A stretch of 64,000 nucleotides of DNA from an uncultured Eubacteriales bacterium (GTDB lineage: Bacteria; Bacillota; Clostridia; Oscillospirales; QAMX01), in the NCBI GenBank assembly GCA_959600635.1, contig CAUGMN010000003.1:6527-70526 (forward strand). Direction: 5' to 3'. A program made the position numbers and the translations under genes. How positions within the stretch are numbered: the first letter of the stretch is position 1; each line of letters opens with the position of its first letter. The notes under the pieces are model-generated. The model searched no databases and was not told where the DNA came from. It was given only the letters and a program-made list of their open reading frames with translations. Below are positions 27,814 to 36,312 of the stretch, one piece after another.

Positions 27814-27962
27814 AATAAGCGAGTCAAAATACGATCGGCCGCCTGGCCTCAGGTCGAATTTTATAAAAGGAACCGCAGCGCGCAGGCTTCGCTTTTCTGC
27901 CGTGCCCTTTGTCTCCCGTCGGAGTCTGCAAAAAAACAAACGAAAGATTGGGTATCGTAAAA

Positions 27963-30900
27963 ATGGCTGTTTACAGATGCTATGTCACCAAGAAAACCGG
28001 CTTTGACTCGGAGAGAACCGCGCTTTTCCGCGATCTGTCGGAGCTTTTGGCGCTCAAATCGCTCCAAAGCGTCGATATTGTTAACCGCTACGACGTCGAA
28101 GGCGTCACGCCGGAAAGCTTTGAAAGCGCCTGCCAAAGCGTTTTCGCCGAGCCGCAGTGCGACGACTGTTTCCCCGAAACGCTGCCCGCAGAGCTGCTGC
28201 GGCAGCCCTGCCGCGTGCTCGCGGTGGAATCGCTGCCCGGCCAGTACGACCAGCGCGCGGACTCCTGCGCCGCGTGCATCCAGCTTTTGTCCGGCGGCGA
28301 GCGCCCGCGCGCGGCCTACGCGCGCATCTACATCCTGCGCGGCGAGCTGAGCGACGCGGATTTTGACCAGTGCAAAAACTGGCTGATTAACCCCGTGGAA
28401 TGCCGCGAGGCGTCGATGGAAAAGCCCGAAACGCTTGCGGCGGCCTACGGCGCGCCCGCGCCGGTCGAAACGCTCGCAGGCTTTACGCAGCTTCACGAGA
28501 CAGAGCTTGCCGCCTGCGTCGCCGAATACGGCCTCGCCATGGACGCGGCCGACCTCGCCTTTTTACAGGCCTATTTCCGCGACGCCGAGCGCCGCGACCC
28601 GACGATCACCGAGCTGCGCGTTCTCGACACCTATTGGTCCGACCACTGCCGCCACACGACGTTTTTGACCCGCCTCTCCGTCGACGGCATCGAGGACGAG
28701 GTCGTCGCCGAGGCGTTCGACCAGTATCTGGCGCTGCGGCGCGAGGTCTTCGGCGACAAGGCCGAGCACCGGCCCGTCACCCTGATGGATATCGCCACCA
28801 TCGGCGCAAAGGCGCTGAAAAAGCGCGGCGTTCTCAAAAACCTCGACGAATCCGACGAGATCAACGCCTGCACCGTCAAGGTCAAGGCCGTCGTCGACGG
28901 CGAGGAGCAGGACTGGCTTCTTCTTTTCAAAAACGAGACCCATAACCATCCAACGGAAATCGAGCCGTTCGGCGGCGCGGCGACCTGCCTCGGCGGCGCG
29001 ATCCGCGACCCGCTCTCCGGCCGCGCCTATGTCTATCAGGCCATGCGCGTCACCGGCAGCGGCGACCCGCGCACGCCGCTGGCCGAGACGCTGCCCGGCA
29101 AGCTCCCGCAGCGGCGGCTGACGAAAACCGCCGCGCGCGGCTATTCCTCCTACGGTAACCAGATCGGCCTCGCCACCGGCTTTGTCGACGAGATCTATCA
29201 CCCCGGCTACGTCGCCAAGCGGCTGGAAATCGGCGCCGTCGTCGGCGCGGCTCCGGCCGAAAACGTGCGGCGCGAGGAGCCCGCGGCAGGCGACGTCGTC
29301 GTCGTGCTCGGCGGGCGCACGGGGCGCGACGGCTGCGGCGGCGCGACCGGCTCCTCCAAGAGCCACAGTGCGGCCTCTCTCTCCGTCTGCGGCGCCGAGG
29401 TTCAGAAGGGCAACCCCCCTGAGGAGCGCAAGCTTCAGCGGCTTTTCCGCAGCCCCGACGTTTCCAAACGCATCAAGCGCTGCAACGATTTCGGCGCCGG
29501 CGGCGTCTCCGTCGCCATCGGCGAGCTGGCCGACGGCCTGAAAATCAACCTCAACGCCCTGCCGAAAAAATACGAGGGCCTGTCCGGCACGGAGCTTGCG
29601 ATCTCCGAATCGCAGGAGCGCATGGCCGTCGTCGTCGCACCAGAGGACGTCGAGGCGATTCTGCGCGCCGCCGCGGCCGAAAACGTCGAGGCGAGCCTTG
29701 TCGCCGTCGTCACCGCCGAGCCGCGGCTGGTGATGGAGCTGAACGGCGAAAAGATCGTCAACCTGTCGCGCGAATTTGTCAACTCCAACGGCGCGCCCAA
29801 AAACGCGGCCTTCGCCGTCCCCGATCTTCCGGAACCGGCCGCCGAGTTCCCGCATGTCTGCGGCGGGCCGGCGCGGCGGCTGGAAGCGCTGCTCGCCGAC
29901 CTCAATATCTGCTCCAAGCGCGGCCTCGTCGAGATGTTCGACTCGTCGATCGGCGCTTCGTCGGTGCTCGCGCCGTTCGGCGGCAAAAACCAGCTCACGC
30001 CGGCGCAGGTCATGGCCGCTCTGCTGCCCGTTCAGAACGGGGAGACGACGACGTGCTCGGTCATGAGCTACGGCTTCAACCCCAATATTTCCGAGCAAAA
30101 CCCGTTTGCCGGCGCCGTTCTGGCCGTGACCGAATCGCTGGCCAAGCTCGCCGCCGCAGGCTGCGACATCGGCAGCGCCTATATGACCTTTCAGGAATAC
30201 TTCGAGCGCCTCCGCGACGAGCCGGCCCGCTGGGGAAAGCCGGTCTCCGCGCTGCTCGGCGCGCTGAGCGCCCAGCTCGGCTACGGCGTCGCCTCCATCG
30301 GCGGCAAGGACTCGATGTCCGGCTCGTTTGAAGACCTCGACGTGCCGCCGACGCTCGTCTCCTTTGCCGTCGCCACCGCCGACGCCTCCGCGCTCGTAAC
30401 CCCCGAATTCAAGGCCGCAGGCAGCACGGTCTGCCTCTTCGCCGCGCCGGTCGACGCAAACGGCCTGCCGGTTTACGCATCTGTGCGCAGTATGTGGGCG
30501 CGCTTCCATGAATACGTCAGAGCCGGCCGGATCAAGGCCGCGTTCGCGCTCACCGCGGGCGGCCTCGGCGAGGCCGTCGCCAAGATGGGCTTCGGCAACG
30601 ACATCGGCTTTGCGCTCGACGAATCGATCGATATTTTCGAGATCTGCCGTTTAAATTACGGCGCGATCCTCGCCGAAACGGACGGGGCGCTCGAAGGCGC
30701 GGTCGTTGTCGGCAAAACGACGGCGGAGCCGGTCATTTCCATGCCGCGCTGCCCCGACGTTTCGCTCGAAACGCTCAAAACGCGCTGGGAGTCTACCCTT
30801 TCCGGCGTCTTCCCCGTCTCCGAGCCGGTCGGGGGCACGGCCGAGCCGGTCGGCTATGCCGAGCGCAACACGGCGCGGCCGCTCGTCAAATGCGCGCGGC

Positions 30901-31694
30901 CGACCGCGGTCATCCCCGTCTTCCCGGGCACCAACTGTGAATTTGACACCGCGCGCGCCGTCGAGCGCGCCGGCGGCATCGCCGAGACGGTCCTCGTCCG
31001 CAACCTGAACCCCGCGCTGCTCCACGAATCGGCCGAGGCGCTTCTCAGCGCCGTCAAGCGCGCCCAGATGCTGATCTTCCCCGGCGGCTTCTCCGGCGGC
31101 GACGAGCCGGAGGGCAGCGGCAAGTTCATCGCCTCGTTTTTCAGAAATCCCGCCCTGCGCGAGGCGACAAACGACCTGATATTAAACCGCGGCGGGCTGA
31201 TTTTAGGCATCTGCAACGGCTTCCAGGCGCTGATCAAGCTCGGCCTCGTGCCGTTCGGCGAGATCCGCGATTTGGACGGCACCTGCCCGACGCTGACCTA
31301 CAACGCCATCGGCGCGCACCGCTCGCGCTATGTGCGCACGCGCGTGGCCTCGGTCAAGTCGCCGTGGCTGGCCAAGTGCTCGCTCGGCGAGGAACACGTC
31401 ATCCCCATTTCGCACGGCGAGGGCCGCTTCGCCGCCGATGATGAGACGCTGGAGCGCCTCATCGCAAACGGCCAGGTCGCCTTCCAGTACGTTGACGCGG
31501 CCGGAAATCCGTCGATGGAGACCGGCGCGAACCCGCCGGGCAGCCTCTTTGCCATCGAGGGCATCACCAGCCCCGACGGCCGCGTGCTCGGCAAGATGGG
31601 ACACACCGAGCGCCGTGGCGCGCTCGTCGGCCGCAACATCCCGGGCAACAAGTTCCAGCCCCTCTTTGAGGCGGGCGTGGAGTATTTCAGGTAA
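27963..31694 (+). CDS. purL: phosphoribosylformylglycinamidine synthase, single-chain (large PurL)
   Basis: 1243 aa. FGAM synthase motifs (HNHPTEIEPFGGAATCLGGAIRD, DFGAGGVSVAIGE) and a C-terminal glutamine amidotransferase domain (LILGICNGFQALIKLG, HGEGRF). Confidence 0.95.
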   Translation: MAVYRCYVTKKTGFDSERTALFRDLSELLALKSLQSVDIVNRYDVEGVTPESFESACQSVFAEPQCDDCFPETLPAELLRQPCRVLAVESLPGQYDQRADSCAACIQLLSGGERPRAAYARIYILRGELSDADFDQCKNWLINPVECREASMEKPETLAAAYGAPAPVETLAGFTQLHETELAACVAEYGLAMDAADLAFLQAYFRDAERRDPTITELRVLDTYWSDHCRHTTFLTRLSVDGIEDEVVAEAFDQYLALRREVFGDKAEHRPVTLMDIATIGAKALKKRGVLKNLDESDEINACTVKVKAVVDGEEQDWLLLFKNETHNHPTEIEPFGGAATCLGGAIRDPLSGRAYVYQAMRVTGSGDPRTPLAETLPGKLPQRRLTKTAARGYSSYGNQIGLATGFVDEIYHPGYVAKRLEIGAVVGAAPAENVRREEPAAGDVVVVLGGRTGRDGCGGATGSSKSHSAASLSVCGAEVQKGNPPEERKLQRLFRSPDVSKRIKRCNDFGAGGVSVAIGELADGLKINLNALPKKYEGLSGTELAISESQERMAVVVAPEDVEAILRAAAAENVEASLVAVVTAEPRLVMELNGEKIVNLSREFVNSNGAPKNAAFAVPDLPEPAAEFPHVCGGPARRLEALLADLNICSKRGLVEMFDSSIGASSVLAPFGGKNQLTPAQVMAALLPVQNGETTTCSVMSYGFNPNISEQNPFAGAVLAVTESLAKLAAAGCDIGSAYMTFQEYFERLRDEPARWGKPVSALLGALSAQLGYGVASIGGKDSMSGSFEDLDVPPTLVSFAVATADASALVTPEFKAAGSTVCLFAAPVDANGLPVYASVRSMWARFHEYVRAGRIKAAFALTAGGLGEAVAKMGFGNDIGFALDESIDIFEICRLNYGAILAETDGALEGAVVVGKTTAEPVISMPRCPDVSLETLKTRWESTLSGVFPVSEPVGGTAEPVGYAERNTARPLVKCARPTAVIPVFPGTNCEFDTARAVERAGGIAETVLVRNLNPALLHESAEALLSAVKRAQMLIFPGGFSGGDEPEGSGKFIASFFRNPALREATNDLILNRGGLILGICNGFQALIKLGLVPFGEIRDLDGTCPTLTYNAIGAHRSRYVRTRVASVKSPWLAKCSLGEEHVIPISHGEGRFAADDETLERLIANGQVAFQYVDAAGNPSMETGANPPGSLFAIEGITSPDGRVLGKMGHTERRGALVGRNIPGNKFQPLFEAGVEYFR

Positions 31695-31703
31695 CGCTTT
31701 CCG

Positions 31704-31745
31704 AAAAACAGAGCCGCTGATAGAATCAGCGGCTCTGTTTTGTTT
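31704..31745 (+). terminator. rho-independent terminator of purL
   Basis: ACAGAGCCGCTGAT / ATCAGCGGCTCTGT stem followed by TTTTGTTT. Confidence 0.85.
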
Positions 31746-31790
31746 GCGGCGGCAAAACGGGCCGGCAAAGGCGCGGAAGCGTTTGACAAC

Positions 31791-31839
31791 AAAAAAACAA
31801 ACCGCTGCGCTCTCCGTATCGATGCGGAGAGCGCAGCGG
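31791..31839 (-). terminator. rho-independent terminator closing the XRE array (minus strand)
   Basis: CCGCTGCGCTCTCCG / CGGAGAGCGCAGCGG stem followed by TTTGTTTTTTT on the minus strand. Confidence 0.75.
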
Positions 31840-31965
31840 TTCAGCGCCAGCTGGTTCGCTTTAAGGGTGATTTCGGACGCGCCTGCGCGAGCTCGCTTCC
31901 ATTCATCTCATCCGCCAGAGCGAAAACGCTCCGCAGACCGTTCTTTCAGAAAACCGTTGCCCCGC

Positions 31966-32334
31966 TCATGCTTTCCCGGCTAAGCCTCGCAGCATATCGA
32001 GTACGACTGCTCTCTGTTCCGGCGACAGCTCTGCAATCAGGGCGTAAATCTCCGCGGCCTCGCCGTCTCCGGACGGTTCCCCTTTTCCGGCCTCCGGCGG
32101 TCTTTGCGCTTGGTCTGTCTGGCCGGTCAGGTATTCAACCGTCGTGTTGAGCTTGTCGGCAATGATAGAGAGTTCGTTGGCGTCGATGTGATCTTTGCCC
32201 AGCCTGACATCCGCTAAAAAAGTAGCTCGTTTGCCAATCAGAGAACATAAATATGTCATCGTCAACCCTTGCGTCTTAGCCAATGTCTTTATTCTATTCA
32301 CGTCTATATTGTGCACTGTGCCCAAAATAATCAC
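31966..32334 (-). CDS. XRE-family HTH protein, paralog A (weak RBS, GTG start; possibly decaying)
   Basis: The HTH_3-like N-terminus (IKTLAKTQGLTMTYLCSLIGKRATFLADVRLG) diverges from copies B and C; the C-terminal ~75 aa are nearly identical to them. The RBS is degenerated relative to copy C. Confidence 0.65.
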   Translation of the reverse strand: MIILGTVHNIDVNRIKTLAKTQGLTMTYLCSLIGKRATFLADVRLGKDHIDANELSIIADKLNTTVEYLTGQTDQAQRPPEAGKGEPSGDGEAAEIYALIAELSPEQRAVVLDMLRGLAGKA

Positions 32335-32360
32335 GTCCGATTTGTATATAATACCAAATC

Positions 32361-32402
32361 CGATAAAATTATCGAATTGCTATTGACATTCGATAATTTT
32401 AT
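32361..32402 (+). promoter_or_regulatory. operator/promoter A: inverted repeat around a TTGACA box; -10 and downstream gene deleted
   Basis: CGATAAAATTATCGAA - 12 nt including TTGACA - TTCGATAATTTTAT (14/14 complementary). Confidence 0.6.
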
Positions 32403-32435
32403 TAGAAAACGGCCATAGCCGAAGCCGCACCCCGC

Positions 32436-32804
32436 TCATGCTTTTCCGGCTAAGCCCCGCAGCATGTCGAGCACGACCGCTCTCTGCTCCGGCGACAGCT
32501 CTGCAATCAGGGCGCAGATCTCCGCGGCCTCGCCGTCTTCGGCCGGTTCCCCTTTTCCGGCCTCCGGCGGTCTTTGCGCTTGATCTGTCTGGTCGGTCAG
32601 GTATTCAACCGTCGTGTTAAGCTTGTCGGCAATGATAGAGAGCTCGTTGGCGTCGATGTGATCTTTGCCAAATCGCACTTCGTTTAAAAAGCCACTTCTT
32701 TTCCCAATACAATCACACAAAAATTTCAATGTAATTCCTTGACTTTTCGCCAACATCCTTATCTTGTCAATATTGACATTAGTAATATTGCACAATTCAA
32801 CCAC
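32436..32804 (-). CDS. XRE-family HTH protein, paralog B
   Basis: IRMLAKSQGITLKFLCDCIGKRSGFLNEVRFG plus the conserved C-terminus. AAGGAG RBS; the true start is probably the TTG a few codons inside the ORF-track GTG. Confidence 0.75.
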   Translation of the reverse strand: MVELCNITNVNIDKIRMLAKSQGITLKFLCDCIGKRSGFLNEVRFGKDHIDANELSIIADKLNTTVEYLTDQTDQAQRPPEAGKGEPAEDGEAAEICALIAELSPEQRAVVLDMLRGLAGKA

Positions 32805-32828
32805 TCCTTATTTGTGCAAAACGTATAA

Positions 32829-32881
32829 CCACTTAATTCTGTGGAAATTTCATTGACTTCCATAAAATTCAGTGGTATATT
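32829..32881 (+). promoter_or_regulatory. operator/promoter B: inverted repeat embracing TTGACT - 17 nt - TATATT
   Basis: Arms CCACTTAATTCTGTGG and CCATAAAATTCAGTGG (13/16 complementary). The second arm fills the promoter spacer. Confidence 0.6.
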
Positions 32882-33161
32882 ATTGTCGCGTCGAGAGACA
32901 AACGCAGCAGTTTCGGCACGGATGCCGCGTGCGGCGCGCCTATGCAGGCGCGGAAAACGCCTTCCAAATAAAACGGTTCGTTGAAAGCGGCTCGCTTCGC
33001 TCAGCCGCGCCCGTTTCGGCCGCATTTCAAAATTAAGCGGTCCGCAGCGGCAGTTCCGTCCGGCCGCGCCGGAAAAATGCGCAAAACTGCCCATATTATA
33101 GTCAGTATACCTGATCGCCTAATCCCTGTCAAGCGTCAAGCGCTTTCCCCCTCCTTTTGAA

Positions 33162-33335
33162 GAGGAGCGTTTTAAGGACAAGCTCCCCGAAGAGCTGCGC
33201 AAAGAGCTGGCCGAGCTCGAAGACTGCTGCGGCGCCGTACACAGCGCGGATCTCGCGCCGGCCTTTTCCGACGGCTTCCGGTTCGGCGCGAGACTCGCCA
33301 CCGAGATTTTTGGCGGCGAGAGCCTCATGGATTAG
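33162..33335 (+). pseudogene. 5'-truncated copy of the small helical protein gene (lacks start and first ~35 codons)
   Basis: In frame it reads EERFKDKLPEELRKELAELEDCCGAVHSADLAPAFSDGFRFGARLATEIFGGESLMD*, nearly identical to 34121..34294. The upstream ~130 bp with the RBS and ATG is deleted. Confidence 0.8.
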
Positions 33336-33363
33336 AAAACGTCCCCCGCCATTTGCACCCCGC

Positions 33364-33756
33364 TCATGCTTTCCCGGCTAAGCCCCGCAGCATATCGAGC
33401 ACGACCGCTCTCTGTTCCGGCGACAGCTCTGCAATCAGGGCGTAAATCTCCGCGGTCTCGCCGTCTCCGGCCGGTTCCCCTTTTCCGGCCTCCGGCGGTC
33501 TTTGCGCTTGGTCTGTCTGGCCGGTCAGGTATTCAACCGTCGTGTTAAGCTTGTCGGCAATGATAGAGAGTTCATTGGTGTCGATGTGATCATAGCCAAG
33601 CCTGACCTGTGATAAAAAGGCACTCCGCTTTCCAATACAATCGCATAAATATTTCATCGTTATTCCACGCAATTTGGCAACTTCTTTTATTCTATCTACG
33701 TTTACATTTTTTACATTGTAAAACTTGCCCAAAAATGACACCTCCTTTTTGTGCAA
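33364..33756 (-). CDS. XRE-family HTH protein, paralog C
   Basis: IKEVAKLRGITMKYLCDCIGKRSAFLSQVRLG plus the conserved C-terminus. Strong AAGGAGGTG RBS; the likely start is the TTG 8 nt downstream of it (protein begins GKFYNVKNVNV). Confidence 0.8.
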   Translation of the reverse strand: MHKKEVSFLGKFYNVKNVNVDRIKEVAKLRGITMKYLCDCIGKRSAFLSQVRLGYDHIDTNELSIIADKLNTTVEYLTGQTDQAQRPPEAGKGEPAGDGETAEIYALIAELSPEQRAVVLDMLRGLAGKA

Positions 33757-33766
33757 AATAGAGATT

Positions 33767-33819
33767 CGGTAAAATTCTTCCGAAAGCCCATTGACTTCGA
33801 AAGAATTTTACCGTATACT
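33767..33819 (+). promoter_or_regulatory. operator/promoter C: inverted repeat embracing TTGACT - 17 nt - TATACT
   Basis: Arms CGGTAAAATTCTTCCG and CGAAAGAATTTTACCG (15/16 complementary). The second arm fills the spacer. Confidence 0.65.
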
Positions 33820-34015
33820 ATTGTCGTGCCGAGAGACAAACGCCGTGGTTTCGGCAGCGTTTCAAAATCAAGCGGTCCGCGGCGGCAGTTCCGTCCGGCC
33901 GCGCCGAAAAATGCGCAAAACTGCCCATATTATATTTAGTATACCTGATTGTCTAACCTCTGTCAAGCATTCGGCGCTTTTCCCCTCATTTTGATTAAAA
34001 AAGGATGGGTCTGTT

Positions 34016-34294
34016 ATGACAACACTCGAAGAGCTCTACTACGGAAATATCGTCCCCCACGATATGCGGCACCGCCCGACGCCCCAGCAGAGACGCCGGG
34101 AAAAGGAGCTGTTCGCGGCGGAGGAGCGTTTTAAGGACAAGCTCCCCGAAGAGCTGCACAAAGAGCTGGCCGAGCTCGAAGACTGCTGCGGCGCCGTACA
34201 CAGCGCGGATCTCGCGCTGGCCTTTTCCGACGGCTTCCGGCTCGGCGCGAGACTCGCCGCCGAGATTTTTGGCGGCGAGAGCCTCGCGGATTAG
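34016..34294 (+). CDS. small helical protein of unknown function (LYYGNI-P family seen beside XRE regulators in Clostridia)
   Basis: 92 aa: MTTLEELYYGNIVPHDMRH...EERFKDKLPEELHKELAELEDCC...FSDGFRLGARLAAEIF. It is the only intact copy of three and is followed by a terminator. Confidence 0.7.
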   Translation: MTTLEELYYGNIVPHDMRHRPTPQQRRREKELFAAEERFKDKLPEELHKELAELEDCCGAVHSADLALAFSDGFRLGARLAAEIFGGESLAD

Positions 34295-34307
34295 ATTACA
34301 GCCACAG

Positions 34308-34353
34308 CCGAAGCCGCGCCCCGTCAAAAGCGCGGGGCGCGGCTTCGGTTTTA
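34308..34353 (+). terminator. rho-independent terminator of the small helical protein gene
   Basis: CCGAAGCCGCGCCCCG / CGGGGCGCGGCTTCGG stem followed by TTTT. Confidence 0.8.
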
Positions 34354-35250
34354 TTTCCGGTTCAGCTTGGGCTTGCGCGTCCGTTTTTGTTCGTAGATCT
34401 CGCCGGTTTCGAGATAGATTGCGCTTTCAAAGTCCGCGCCGCCGCCGATATCGATGATGCGCGCGCCCTTGGCGTAGCCCTCCAAGCCGTAGCACTGGTA
34501 GCCCGACCCTCTGCCGTAGCAGAGCCGGATGCCGTGCAGCGTGCCCTCGTAGTCGTTGATGTGATCGTGTCCGACAAAGACGCCGCGCATCGCCCCGCCC
34601 CGCACCATGGCGGCGAAGAGCCCGTCGTTGCAGTCGGTGGCGCAGACGCGCTCCTGATTAAAGCCCTTGCACGGCTCATAGTCCCAAACTTCGATGTATT
34701 CAGGCACCGGCACGTGGAAAAACGCCAGCTCTCTGTGCCCCTCGCCCAGCGCCGCCGACGTTTCGGCATACCAGAGAATCTGATTGAGCGCGAAGTGTCC
34801 GCGGTGCGAATCGATCATATAGAGCGCCCAGTCGGGCTTTTCGGCCGTGCCTCCGACGGTGACAAGATAGTTTCCCCAGCCGTCCGCCGATTCCGGCCCC
34901 ATCTCAAACAGGCTGTTTTTGCGCCCGAGCAGCATTTCCGCAAACAGGCGCCGCCCGCCCTCGGCGCGGTCGCCGAGGCGCTCTCCGTCGTGATTGCCGA
35001 GCACCGGCGCCCACGGAATCCCGAAGGCGTCCAGTTCGTCGACCAGCCGGTCGACGGCCTCGCGGTCGCCCGTTCCCCATGCGATATCGCCGGTGATCAC
35101 GATCAGATCCGGCGACGTGTCGCGCAGCGTCTGGCGAATGAGCGCGAAGGTCTGCTCATACTCTTCAAAGCGTTCGGTCGAGTCGAGGTGAATATCGGTC
35201 AGCTGGCAGATACGGAACCGGCCTCCGGCCGGAATTGAAAAATGTGTCAT
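34351..35250 (-). CDS. calcineurin-like metallophosphoesterase
   Basis: ICQLTDIHLD, VITGDIAWG, VLGNHD and VGHDHINDY motifs. The start is trimmed to the ATG at 35250, which has a GGGAGGAAA RBS. Confidence 0.88.
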   Translation of the reverse strand: MTHFSIPAGGRFRICQLTDIHLDSTERFEEYEQTFALIRQTLRDTSPDLIVITGDIAWGTGDREAVDRLVDELDAFGIPWAPVLGNHDGERLGDRAEGGRRLFAEMLLGRKNSLFEMGPESADGWGNYLVTVGGTAEKPDWALYMIDSHRGHFALNQILWYAETSAALGEGHRELAFFHVPVPEYIEVWDYEPCKGFNQERVCATDCNDGLFAAMVRGGAMRGVFVGHDHINDYEGTLHGIRLCYGRGSGYQCYGLEGYAKGARIIDIGGGADFESAIYLETGEIYEQKRTRKPKLNRK

Positions 35251-35566
35251 AGCGTTTCCTCCCGATGGATGAAGATGGATGAAATGGATAAAAAAATCCG
35301 CGCGGATTCTATACCGTCTGCTGCGCCTTCGCCCTGCGGCAAACGCAGAACAGACGGCGAACCCGGCCTTGCGGTTCCGCAAATATTATACCATAAACCG
35401 GCGGCGCTGTCCCGCCGGTTTTTGATTTTTTTCGATCGGTTCCGCGTTTTTTTCGTCCGGCCGAACCGCTGCGCGCCGGTCGCAAAGCGCGAAAGGCGCG
35501 CAGCGCCGTTTTTGGGAGGCCCGCTCCGCAATCCCGCCGTTTCTTTTATAAATTCCGGCGTTTGAT

Positions 35567-35682: not shown

Positions 35683-36312
35683 ATGCTCAAAACCGACAAA
35701 ACCTGCGTTATGAATCTGGACAACGCCATCCGCGGGGCGCGAAACCCCATGAACTCATGGGCGAAATCCGACAGCGGCTACGACAGCAGGGGCAACTTCG
35801 TCCTCGGCGATGCGGATCTCGCCCTCGCCGTCAAGCTCTGCACGGCGGGCAGCGACCACCGCAAATTCATCCGGCAAATCTTTGTCTCCGTCGATATCAC
35901 CGCGCCGCTGTACTGGTGGAAAGAGTTCGACACCTATAAGGTCGGCACCGTCGCCAACTCCACGAGCACGATGCACCGTATCCACGCCAAGCCCATCGAG
36001 CTGTCGGATTTCAGCACCGATCAGATGACCGGAGAAAGCCTGACGCGCTTCGAGGGCTATATCGCCTACCTCGAACAGCTTCGCCGCCGCTATACCGAGA
36101 GCGGCGACCGCATCTGGTGGGACGATCTGATTCAGCTGCTGCCGTCGAGCTACAACCAGCTCCGCACGGTGACGATGAACTATGAAAACCTGCGCAATAT
36201 GTACCATTCGAGAAGCCGCCACAAGCTCGCCGAGTGGCATGTGCTCTGTGACTGGATCGCCTCGCTGCCCTATGCGGCCGAGCTGATCATCGGCGCGGCC
36301 CGGCCTCAGTAG
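35683..36312 (+). CDS. ThyX-fold (flavin-dependent thymidylate synthase-like) protein lacking the RHR motif
   Basis: Aligns by eye to ThyX: GSDHRKFIRQIFVSVDITAPLYWWKEF vs [26 protein letters not shown], and LLPSSYNQLRTVTMNYENLRNMYHSRSRHKLAEW vs [33 protein letters not shown]. RHRxxxxxxxS is replaced by DTYKVGTVANS. Confidence 0.6.
   Translation: MLKTDKTCVMNLDNAIRGARNPMNSWAKSDSGYDSRGNFVLGDADLALAVKLCTAGSDHRKFIRQIFVSVDITAPLYWWKEFDTYKVGTVANSTSTMHRIHAKPIELSDFSTDQMTGESLTRFEGYIAYLEQLRRRYTESGDRIWWDDLIQLLPSSYNQLRTVTMNYENLRNMYHSRSRHKLAEWHVLCDWIASLPYAAELIIGAARPQ

Follow-up and report, generated by a model that had tools for sequence, protein, structure and literature searches.

In this work, a 64-kb stretch of DNA from a gut-type Clostridia genome (hereafter the window) was found to carry what is probably a tandem array of three paralogous repressor/operator cassettes of phage type, located in the host chromosome, with predicted operators. 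The three repressor genes (A, B, and C) lie in tandem on the minus strand and encode proteins of 119-122 aa. The array is placed between two housekeeping genes, in the order purL-[A,B,C]-DUF6809-metallophosphoesterase (Table 1). An assembly artefact was ruled out, since the same three-unit array occurs in an independent sample and one- and two-unit variants occur elsewhere.

Table 1. Features of the repressor array and its flanks (window coordinates).
Feature	Position	Strand	Details
Terminator-like hairpin downstream of repressor A	31798..31843	-	19-pair stem, then T run
Repressor A	31966..32325	-	119 aa, TTG start; XRE-type HTH head, invariant core, shared GC-rich tail; ORF and translation
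Unit A operator region	32360..32405	+	O1 32360-32375 = CCGATAAAATTATCGA; TTGACA 32383-32388; O2 32390-32405
Repressor B	32436..32795	-	119 aa, TTG start; ORF and translation
Unit B outward promoter and predicted operators	32829..32881	+	O1 32829-32844; -35 TTGACT 32853-32858; O2 32860-32875; -10 TATATT 32876-32881
Consensus promoter TTGACA-17-TATACT toward repressor B	33104..33132	-	Promoter scan, 11/12 consensus positions; kept in L050 and L044
DUF6809 remnant, 5'-truncated	33162..33335	+	57 codons, without start codon; 94% to intact copy
Repressor C	33364..33732	-	122 aa, TTG start after AAGGAGGTG; AF2 model
Unit C outward promoter and predicted operators	33767..33819	+	O1 33767-33782; -35 TTGACT 33791-33796; O2 33798-33813; -10 TATACT 33814-33819
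Consensus promoter TTGACA-17-TATACT toward repressor C	33938..33966	-	Promoter scan, 11/12 consensus positions
DUF6809 gene, intact	34016..34294	+	92 aa; Pfam PF20648 72.5 bits, cutoff 27
Terminator hairpin 3' of DUF6809	34306..34350	+	Left arm repeated at A/B unit junction

Repressor proteins

In the AF2 model, the repressor has a five-helix Cro/C1-type fold (helices 12-22, 26-32, 39-45, 52-61, and 66-69, pLDDT ~90). Residues 70-90 are disordered and are followed by two C-terminal helices, linker and helices together making up a C-terminus of ~50 residues; the two helices probably mediate oligomerisation. Foldseek returned the N-terminal domains of SinR, 434 Cro, P22 c2, and ImmR (target TM 0.67-0.77, rmsd ~2-3 Å). 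The top full-length structural match was AimC, the arbitrium-phage repressor (9iaq, E=4e-4), followed by SinR (1b0n, E=3e-3), C-proteins, DdrO, and ImmR. At the sequence level, HTH_3 (PF01381) scored under the 23-bit cutoff for A (20.2 bits) and C (18.8 bits) and did not match B; a precomputed PF01381 match is present in some relatives. The PADLOC capH profile gave a weak full-length match (E=2.5e-4, 20.1 bits, residues 7-119 against 3-99 of 103). The best PDB sequence match, 7t5u, was also weak (E=0.046); we take this entry to be the CapH HTH domain, which its title does not say. The Peptidase_S24 domain of the lambda-CI/LexA self-cleaving type was not matched in the repressors.

The initial annotation had placed the differences between the three proteins mainly in the HTH helices. 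Instead, they are spread across the whole N-terminal 47 residues: among ~34 variable columns, ~17 lie before helix 2 and ~12 in helix 2 to helix 3, with the rest in the tail. The variable columns include recognition-helix positions 37, 38, 41, and 42, which presumably align with the base-contacting residues of 434 repressor, judging from an alignment and the AF2 model. Purifying selection acts on all three repressor genes. Comparing orthologs of A, B, and C gave a pN/pS of 0.09-0.17 in most cases (~0.09 for repressor A against L010) and of up to ~0.4 in the closest C pair. The protein sequence of the heads does not vary among orthologs.

Predicted operators and promoters

Each repressor gene is preceded by two 16-bp AT-rich sites, which differ between units A, B, and C as first described. 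O1 lies ~8 bp upstream of the TTGAC(A/T) box and O2 takes up the 17-nt spacer. The centre-to-centre distance of the two sites is ~31 bp, or about three turns of the helix. O1 and O2 are inverted copies of each other at 14/16 (A), 13/16 (B), and 15/16 (C) positions. This agrees with the inverted repeat originally noted for each unit, with its second arm in the 17-nt spacer, and all of the arm, box, and HTH sequences quoted at that time were recovered at their positions. On the other hand, the proposed shared core TAAAATT does not hold: the common core is AATT, and AATT itself is not universal in the wider family. A search with every arm found no further copies in the 64-kb window beyond 3-mismatch chance matches, and the remaining short inverted repeats there are GC-rich and resemble terminator hairpins. 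The hairpin downstream of repressor A is likely the end of the repressor transcripts.

The outward promoters of units B and C match 10/12 consensus positions in the promoter scan, with 17-nt spacers. Unit A has no -10 box (32406-32411 reads AAAACG), and the same truncation is present in L010; its promoter is incomplete because the unit is cut off at the ATTAG duplication junction. Thus, of the promoter-bearing layout attributed to all three units, the operators are found in all three and a complete promoter only in B and C. The description of these promoters as divergent also needs revision. Outward promoters are predicted, but opposite each one there is a consensus promoter on the repressor strand (33966..33938 and 33132..33104), and the predicted transcripts of the facing promoters overlap by ~210 nt in unit B and ~105 nt in unit C. 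The promoter directed at repressor C has a counterpart in the phage loci L021, L027, and L042. A weak TAYNTT -10-like motif is also present just upstream of each repressor ribosome-binding site. Because this motif has no usable -35, we prefer the facing consensus promoter as the candidate repressor promoter.

The operator region would lie inside the repressor transcript from the facing promoter, and the repressor strand folds well in unit C (-29.1 kcal/mol, z=-7.1), unit B (z=-3.5), and L021 (z=-4.7). The inverted repeats could then work mainly at the RNA level, as hairpins of the repressor mRNA 5' leader with a role in stability, processing, or attenuation, and the covariation of the arms would reflect compensatory pairing. 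We regard this as very improbable. In L002 and L030, where direct or self-palindromic sites occupy the same positions, the strand folds no better than shuffles (z=-0.9 and -0.8), which together with the internal near-palindromy of the arms mostly rules it out. Furthermore, arm-arm mismatches include transversions (arm pairs read by eye), and RNA pairing leaves unexplained the near-palindromy, the exact fit of O2 to the spacer, and the correlation with the recognition helix. An Rfam scan of 31600-34500 at E<=1 gave sub-threshold chance matches only, with no known RNA family in the leaders.

Relatives and HTH-operator covariation

The closest relatives of the repressors form 20 clusters among 5.8 billion proteins. 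They are located in prophage lysogeny modules with tyrosine integrases or serine recombinases, ImmA-like M78 peptidase, ParE toxin pairs, and phage replication genes. The lysogeny module lies beside an integrase or recombinase for relatives P0005, P0014, P0016, and P0017, and a Peptidase_M78 gene lies beside the relatives in L016-L023. No integrase was found near the window genes, as judged from the part of the window ORFs that was scanned and from neighbours at syntenic loci, which carry housekeeping Pfam families only. No M78 peptidase was found in the 64-kb window, where tblastn with the L016 M78 protein gave a best E=0.16.

By comparing 19 distinct HTH types, the -35, the -10, and the 17-nt spacer are seen to be fixed, while the two flanking 16-bp sites vary together and remain mirror images. 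Among the 19 family members, cognate O1/O2 mirror identity was 13.4/16, whereas non-cognate pairs scored 7.9 +/- 1.5. The arms also show a weak palindromy of their own, with at least 6/8 pairs in 12/19 O1 sites against 17.6% of shuffles. The Mantel correlation between operator distance and HTH distance was r=0.48 (p=5e-5), whereas that with adjacent flank DNA (r=0.11) was not significant. The nearest operator pairs are those with the nearest recognition helices: window B with L039, L015 with L027, window A with L021, and window A or L021 with L029. The proposal that A, B, and C are heteroimmune repressor/operator pairs of differing specificity is therefore supported, as a reading of sequence, by the prophage context of the relatives, the layout in 19 types, and the HTH-operator correlation.

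The same covariation could also be expected from linkage and co-inheritance alone, because the HTH and the operator are ~100 bp apart and travel as one cassette. Moreover, mixed oligomers are expected because the three proteins share one tail, and these may blur or defeat separate specificities. In several phage relatives (L015, L016, and L024), lysogeny genes on the same strand lie in the path of the outward promoter and there is no ORF that it would obviously drive, so "lytic promoter" would be an unsafe label.

Mosaicism and proposed growth of the array

The repressor genes are mosaics of three modules: a variable head with its operators, a 22-residue core that does not vary, and a tail that can be exchanged. 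The head DNA of repressor B is 99-100% identical to that of the phage-tailed L039 up to the QTD codons and then falls to ~45%; L044 and L039 have 0 differences in 298 nt, followed by an unrelated tail. L039 is a contig of only 541 nt, so its phage origin is assigned by tail type. L021 carries a prophage copy whose head and operator half-site (CCGATAA) match those of repressor A. The tails are shuffled between paralogues and strains, and the tail in the window is unique to this locus, with a GC content of 62-66% against 53-57% for phage tails.

The copy number at this site is polymorphic in related strains. The three-unit locus is present in the same order in L010, two units (B and C) are present in L050, and one unit (B) in L044-L049. 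The unit junctions, ATTAG and CCCCG, are internal. In-place divergence after duplication was ruled out for B, as its head is identical to that of a phage-tailed copy. At least B, and probably all three, arose by import or exchange of a head-plus-operator cassette with phage genes at the conserved core. The array thus seems to grow through cassette exchange with temperate phages: units would be duplicated through their near-identical 3' halves, and the AT-rich head-plus-operator cassette would be swapped with temperate-phage homologues at the invariant core (NELSIIADKLNTTVEYLTGQTD).

Alternatively, prophages or mobile elements might have inserted repeatedly at one hotspot and left the units behind as decaying remnants, with autoregulation as their only present function and their differences a historical accident. 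The relatives are indeed prophage genes, A and B have lost the downstream gene, A has lost its -10 box, and DUF6809 is found elsewhere in mobile-element-like contexts. We nevertheless consider decay improbable. The flanking synteny is identical in one-, two-, and three-unit strains, and att-like ends, an integrase, or other phage genes were not found there. None of the three ORFs is disrupted, their pN/pS is low, and their heads do not vary. In addition, the internal position of the ATTAG and CCCCG junctions is expected from duplication/deletion and not from insertion.

DUF6809 and the predicted targets of the outward promoters

The only intact predicted coding target of the outward promoters is DUF6809 in unit C. 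The copy in unit B is 5'-truncated, and in unit A neither the -10 box nor the gene is left. Residues 1-84 of the protein align with 1-85 of the 85 positions of PF20648, and 153 representative clusters were found at E<=1e-3. There were no matches in PHROGs, PADLOC, or PDB, the gene is absent from the fetched phage loci, and a literature search found no paper naming DUF6809. No homology of DUF6809 to the repressor tail was detected (BLASTP E=14, hhalign probability 0.35%), and its reading as a SinI/AimX-like paralogue of that tail was rejected.

We tentatively consider, as a possible but rather doubtful reading, that the array is an anti-phage device: phage repressor heads captured on a host-specific tail would silence temperate phages with matching operators and give superinfection immunity without a prophage. 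DUF6809 may then be an effector that is induced by titration or inactivation of a repressor. That all three genes are under purifying selection, though A and B control no intact gene, would fit such a device. The identity of the B head and operators to a phage-tailed copy, the match of the A head and half-site to L021, the tail unique to the locus, and a copy number of 1, 2, or 3 at one constant site among housekeeping genes, in a window where neither an integrase nor an M78 peptidase was found, point in the same direction. However, no phages with A-type or C-type heads were found among protein clusters, the cultured-phage collection, and IMG/VR, and no C-type operators were found in IMG/VR phages. 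The cultured-phage collection holds relatives at 40% identity or less only, and IMG/VR and the representative genomes hold distant relatives only. The shortness of the L039 contig, the lack of a DUF6809 match in defence-system and phage-family libraries, and a possible weakening of immunity by mixed oligomers also count against it.

Comparison with known systems

Co-variation of repressor and operator and mosaic immunity cassettes are textbook features of the lambdoid phages. In the lambdoid immunity regions (lambda, 434, P22, 21; CI/Cro, OR operators, imm cassettes), the repressor HTH and operators likewise co-vary and move as a mosaic cassette, and the operators overlap a sigma-70-type promoter, as here. 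The differences are that the present repressors lack an S24 autocleavage domain, that no cro lies next to them in the window, and that two mirror-image sites surround one promoter, whereas the lambdoid regions have three tandem sites between two back-to-back promoters. Moreover, the present array is in the host chromosome outside any prophage, as three tandem copies with one tail.

The CTX-phi/RS1 rstR/ig-2 modules of Vibrio cholerae reportedly carry divergent repressor alleles and matching divergent operator regions beside conserved flanks, in tandem in one chromosome. Divergent alleles with matching operators can thus lie in tandem there as here, but the proteins are unrelated, and whole prophages or satellites are repeated there, whereas here the unit is a ~0.5-1 kb repressor-promoter segment without replication or integration genes.

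On the basis of the model, AimC and SinR share the domain plan of the present proteins (five-helix HTH, unstructured linker, and two antiparallel C-terminal helices), although sequence identity is only 15-20%. The C-terminal helices of AimC were reported to form dimers and tetramers (bioRxiv 10.1101/2025.11.23.689978). AimC and SinR are inactivated by the small antirepressors AimX and SinI, whereas no antirepressor candidate and no arbitrium genes were found here, and DUF6809 would be a target and not a controller. With the M78-cleaved HTH repressors (ImmR/ImmA, CapH/CapP, DdrO/IrrE), the likeness consists of the weak full-length CapH profile match and of phage relatives of one tail type that have an adjacent Peptidase_M78 gene. 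No such peptidase was found in the window, and the tail of the window repressors differs from the peptidase-accompanying type.

In coliphages 186 and P2, a lysogenic promoter is opposed by a strong promoter in a face-to-face pR/pL arrangement, and the repressor relieves the interference by acting on the opposing promoter (PMC3675496, PMC5001618). The converging arrangement is like that described here, where interference is predicted from consensus promoter matches only; the CI protein and operators of 186 are unrelated to this repressor family.

Proposed mechanism

From the sequence, we infer a scheme of DNA binding, specificity, oligomeric state, promoter activity, and interference as follows. 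Each repressor dimer would bind each of its two cognate 16-bp quasi-palindromic sites and occlude the strong outward sigma-A-type promoter, while the facing consensus promoter would drive the repressor gene. Repression of the outward promoter would relieve convergent interference on repressor synthesis and so give positive feedback. That a repressor can relieve convergent interference is well established (PMC5001618; for phage 186, PMC3675496). In addition, repressor bound in its own leader could limit read-through.

A wider, speculative reading, which we consider unlikely, is that the array is an expandable host-owned library of phage immunity specificities. Cassettes would be captured from infecting temperate phages via the invariant 66-nt core and the shared 3' tail and stacked by unequal crossing-over (from one to two to three units), each head silencing its immunity group, as a heritable repressor-based defence memory without a prophage. 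The host tail may in this case be immune to the phage's own induction machinery. If so, heteroimmune phages of one tail type could disturb each other's repressors via mixed oligomers.

Significance

The ~19 matched HTH/operator pairs on one fixed promoter scaffold provide a data set for the recognition code of this XRE subfamily, and the same series is a source of orthogonal repressor/promoter parts for Clostridia. The locus also shows clearly that a cassette has been exchanged at the level of domains between a chromosomal gene and phage genes, with the breakpoint at the end of the 22-residue invariant core. It is a tandem array of variable copy number outside any prophage, and all of its members are kept by selection though two have lost the target gene. 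Should the array indeed make its host immune to several phage groups, gut Clostridia would have a simple, previously undescribed route of anti-phage defence, and the spread of immunity specificities would become directly testable.

Array anatomy and putative operator sites

The three tandem phage-type repressor genes A, B and C lie between a purL-type gene and a metallophosphoesterase gene (see table). Each repeat unit has the order repressor, outward promoter (the one holding operator O2 in its spacer), leader of ~190 nt and DUF6809 gene, and it is complete in unit C only. The DUF6809 remnant of unit B still has an open frame of 57 codons with 94% identity to the intact copy, and lies antisense inside the C-to-B read-through region. 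The back-to-back strong hairpins between purL and repressor A are probably the terminators of two converging transcription units. On the far side of the array, a 209-aa ORF with no match in Pfam or PADLOC is retained beside a PHP-domain gene at all syntenic loci (L010, L044–L050). No M78 peptidase and no additional member of the repressor family was found anywhere in the 64-kb window.

Features of the repressor array and its flanks (window coordinates)
Feature	Position	Strand	Remark
purL-type gene	27909-31694	+	one flank of array
Hairpin	31705-31741		17 bp, perfect; between purL and repressor A
Hairpin	31798-31843		21 bp at 95%; between purL and repressor A
Repressor gene A	31966-32325	-	tandem with B and C; 119-122 residues across A-C
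Repressor gene B	32436-32795	-	tandem with A and C; 119-122 residues across A-C
B head	32649-32795		compared with L010, L013, L044, L050, L039
TTGT(C)-N8/9-(G)ACAA repeat	32888-32905		also L015, L016, L021, L024, L027, L042
Leader insertion, unit B	~32919-33001		~83 nt, GC-rich
Facing promoter, unit B	33132..33104	-	11/12 consensus positions
DUF6809 remnant, unit B	33162-33335		first 35 codons missing, no start codon
Repressor gene C	33364-33732	-	tandem with A and B; 119-122 residues across A-C
TTGT(C)-N8/9-(G)ACAA repeat	33826-33843		as for the first copy
Facing promoter, unit C	33966..33938	-	11/12 consensus positions
DUF6809 gene, unit C	34016-34294		intact; Pfam 72.5 bits
Metallophosphoesterase gene	34351-35382	-	other flank of array
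209-aa ORF	35683-36312	+	

All sequences quoted in the initial annotation were found in the window. In every unit a 16-bp putative operator site, O1, lies 7–8 bp 5' of TTGAC(A/T), and a second, O2, fills positions 2–17 of the 17-nt spacer; the two are inverted copies with reverse-complement matches of 14/16 (A), 13/16 (B) and 15/16 (C). The arrangement had been assigned to all three units, which is real for the operators but not for the promoter of unit A, where the unit terminates at an ATTAG junction sitting in place of the -10 box. The proposed TAAAATT-like shared core was not borne out, as the arms have only AATT in common. By comparing all sites against all among 19 family members, cognate O1/O2 pairs agreed at a mean of 13.4/16, against 7.9 ± 1.5 for non-cognate pairs. 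The arms do not occur elsewhere in the window, and its remaining short inverted repeats are GC-rich, terminator-like hairpins. The layout (O1, ~8 nt, TTGAC(A/T), one base, O2, then TATACT or TATAAT) is found at a constant start-codon distance 5' of every close relative, and also in several distant ones (L002, L004, L025, L029, L030, L032). Across relatives the promoter boxes do not change and the spacer is always 17 nt long, and the sites are wholly different between HTH types.

The sites are also weakly self-palindromic (at least 6/8 pairs in 12/19 O1 sites, versus 17.6% of shuffles), and in L002 and L030 O1 and O2 are direct, not inverted, copies. We therefore read each 16-bp sequence as a predicted dimer site, with the paired sites about three helical turns apart. 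The alternative that the inverted repeats act as RNA hairpins is weakened, since L002-type and L030-type members retain the sites without folding. A separate inverted repeat, TTGT(C)-N8/9-(G)ACAA (e.g., ATTGTCGTGCCGAGAGACAA), stands directly 3' of the outward -10 box in nearly all close relatives, and a related TTGTGCAAAA lies on the far side of O1, immediately 5' of the repressor ribosome-binding site. Its stem sequence is conserved and does not covary, so the repeat could bind a second factor that acts independently of type, or form a hairpin in the 5' RNA.

Covariation of operators and HTH domains

Operator distance was correlated with the distance between HTH domains (Mantel r = 0.48, p = 5e-5) and with that between recognition helices (r = 0.46), and adjacent non-operator DNA showed no correlation (r = 0.11). 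The closest operators pair with the closest helices: winB (window copy of B) with L039, L015 with L027, winA (window copy of A) with L021, and either of the latter two with L029. The recognition helices of winA and L021 are KRATFLADVRLG and KRATFLSDVRLG, respectively, and both share a CCGATAA half-site. Helix positions 37, 38, 41 and 42 vary, flanking the conserved core-facing F39, L40 and V43; on our alignment these four would be the counterparts of the base-contacting residues in 434 repressor. The protein differences had been described as concentrated in the HTH helices, but they extend over the whole N-terminal 47 residues, with about half of them before helix 2. The comparative evidence supports heteroimmune repressor/operator pairs in an amended form, in which specificity was acquired, at least for B and probably for all three units, via cassette exchange and not by divergence in place.

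Mosaic origin of the repressors

Protein alignment resolved a variable head (residues 1–48), an invariant 22-residue core (NELSIIADKLNTTVEYLTGQTD) and a tail that belongs to one of several mutually unrelated types. A given head can carry differing tails: the B head matches relative P0006, and an A-like head is present in P0008 and P0016. At the DNA level, the 3' halves of A, B and C are 93–95% identical over ~240 nt (62–66% GC), and identity falls abruptly to ~55–60% in the 5' halves (35–44% GC) and upstream regulatory DNA. The head module is likewise AT-rich in phage copies, so low GC is a trait of the module and no proof of recent import. Over the stretch that starts with the operators and includes the QTD codons, unit B and L039, a 541-nt contig with a phage-type tail, are 99–100% identical, and beyond it ~45%; L044, a strain with one unit, matches L039 at all 298 nt that precede the divergence of the tails. 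In the full set of B copies, differences number 0–1 in the 147-nt head, 0–9 in the upstream 110 nt and 2–12 in the tail (of 147). The coding head of B changes more slowly than its operator arms and lacks even synonymous differences between lineages with differing operator regions and tails. This near-invariance may reflect either very recent cassette spread or nucleotide-level constraint. Core-plus-tail variants are shuffled between paralogues and strains, the tail nearest to that of window A being a B tail from another sample. It follows that copies recombine with one another in the 3' half that they share, and that the core is the edge of cassette exchange.

The family is rare (20 clusters in 5.8 billion proteins), and its closest different-tail members are inside prophage lysogeny modules. 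Their neighbours in L015 and L024 are a tyrosine integrase and a ParE pair; in L016–L023 they are an M78 peptidase and a serine recombinase, and these loci also have phage replication genes close by and host cotJ genes further out. In these prophages a 109-aa predicted membrane protein gene, tandemly duplicated in L016 (5010-5339 and 5558-5887) and single in L017, lies immediately upstream of the repressor, and the outward promoter is directed into it in antisense. In the AF2 model a five-helix HTH is predicted with confidence, followed by a disordered linker (residues 70–90) and two C-terminal helices. The top full-length structural matches were AimC (arbitrium-phage repressor), SinR, C-proteins, DdrO and ImmR; CapH matched weakly at full length. 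The counterpart C-terminal helices of AimC make dimers and tetramers (bioRxiv 10.1101/2025.11.23.689978).

Facing promoters and a possible switch

Opposite each complete outward promoter, the repressor strand carries a consensus TTGACA-17-TATACT promoter, and the phage loci L021, L027 and L042 have an equivalent facing promoter. The convergent transcripts are predicted to share ~105 nt in unit C and ~210 nt in unit B; the leader insertion of unit B, missing in unit C and also seen in the L010, L044 and L050 B units, doubles the overlap between the facing promoters. We hypothesize that repressor on O1 and O2 would turn the outward promoter off and so free its own synthesis from interference, and that repressor bound within its own leader could limit read-through. 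Both behaviors are established in convergent phage switches (PMC5001618, PMC3675496). Unit A lacks its own facing promoter; its transcription probably reaches it by read-through from unit B, or starts at a TG-extended TATTAT box. As read from ORF translations, the outward promoter leads to a Cro-like small HTH gene in L002 and a Bro-N-like ORF in L027, with nothing obvious downstream in L015, L016 and L024. The name lytic promoter is not applied, because these targets vary among phages. A DUF6809 homologue (38% identity) in L051, an unverified gut 'phage' contig (MT835506.1, 2995-3276), is followed by excisionase-like HTH and replication-initiator-like ORFs and has no XRE repressor 5' of it, so DUF6809 is not linked to the present repressor family elsewhere.

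Maintenance and significance of the array

This chromosomal site holds one unit (B with intact DUF6809) in L044–L049, two (B, C) in L050 and three in the window and the independent sample L010. Across strains, pN/pS is 0.09–0.17 in most ortholog comparisons and at most ~0.4 for the closest C pair, and the heads are identical at the protein level. Hence A, B and C are all maintained, including the two without an intact controlled gene. That the units are decaying remnants is weakened by this low pN/pS, the conserved synteny and the intact ORFs. An anti-phage immunity library, as judged from sequence, would be consistent with the retention of A and B and with a B cassette that is identical to a phage copy, although no phage with A-type or C-type heads was found. 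The underlying principle is already known; what is new is a tandem array in the chromosome whose copy number varies, together with the shared tail and the facing promoters.
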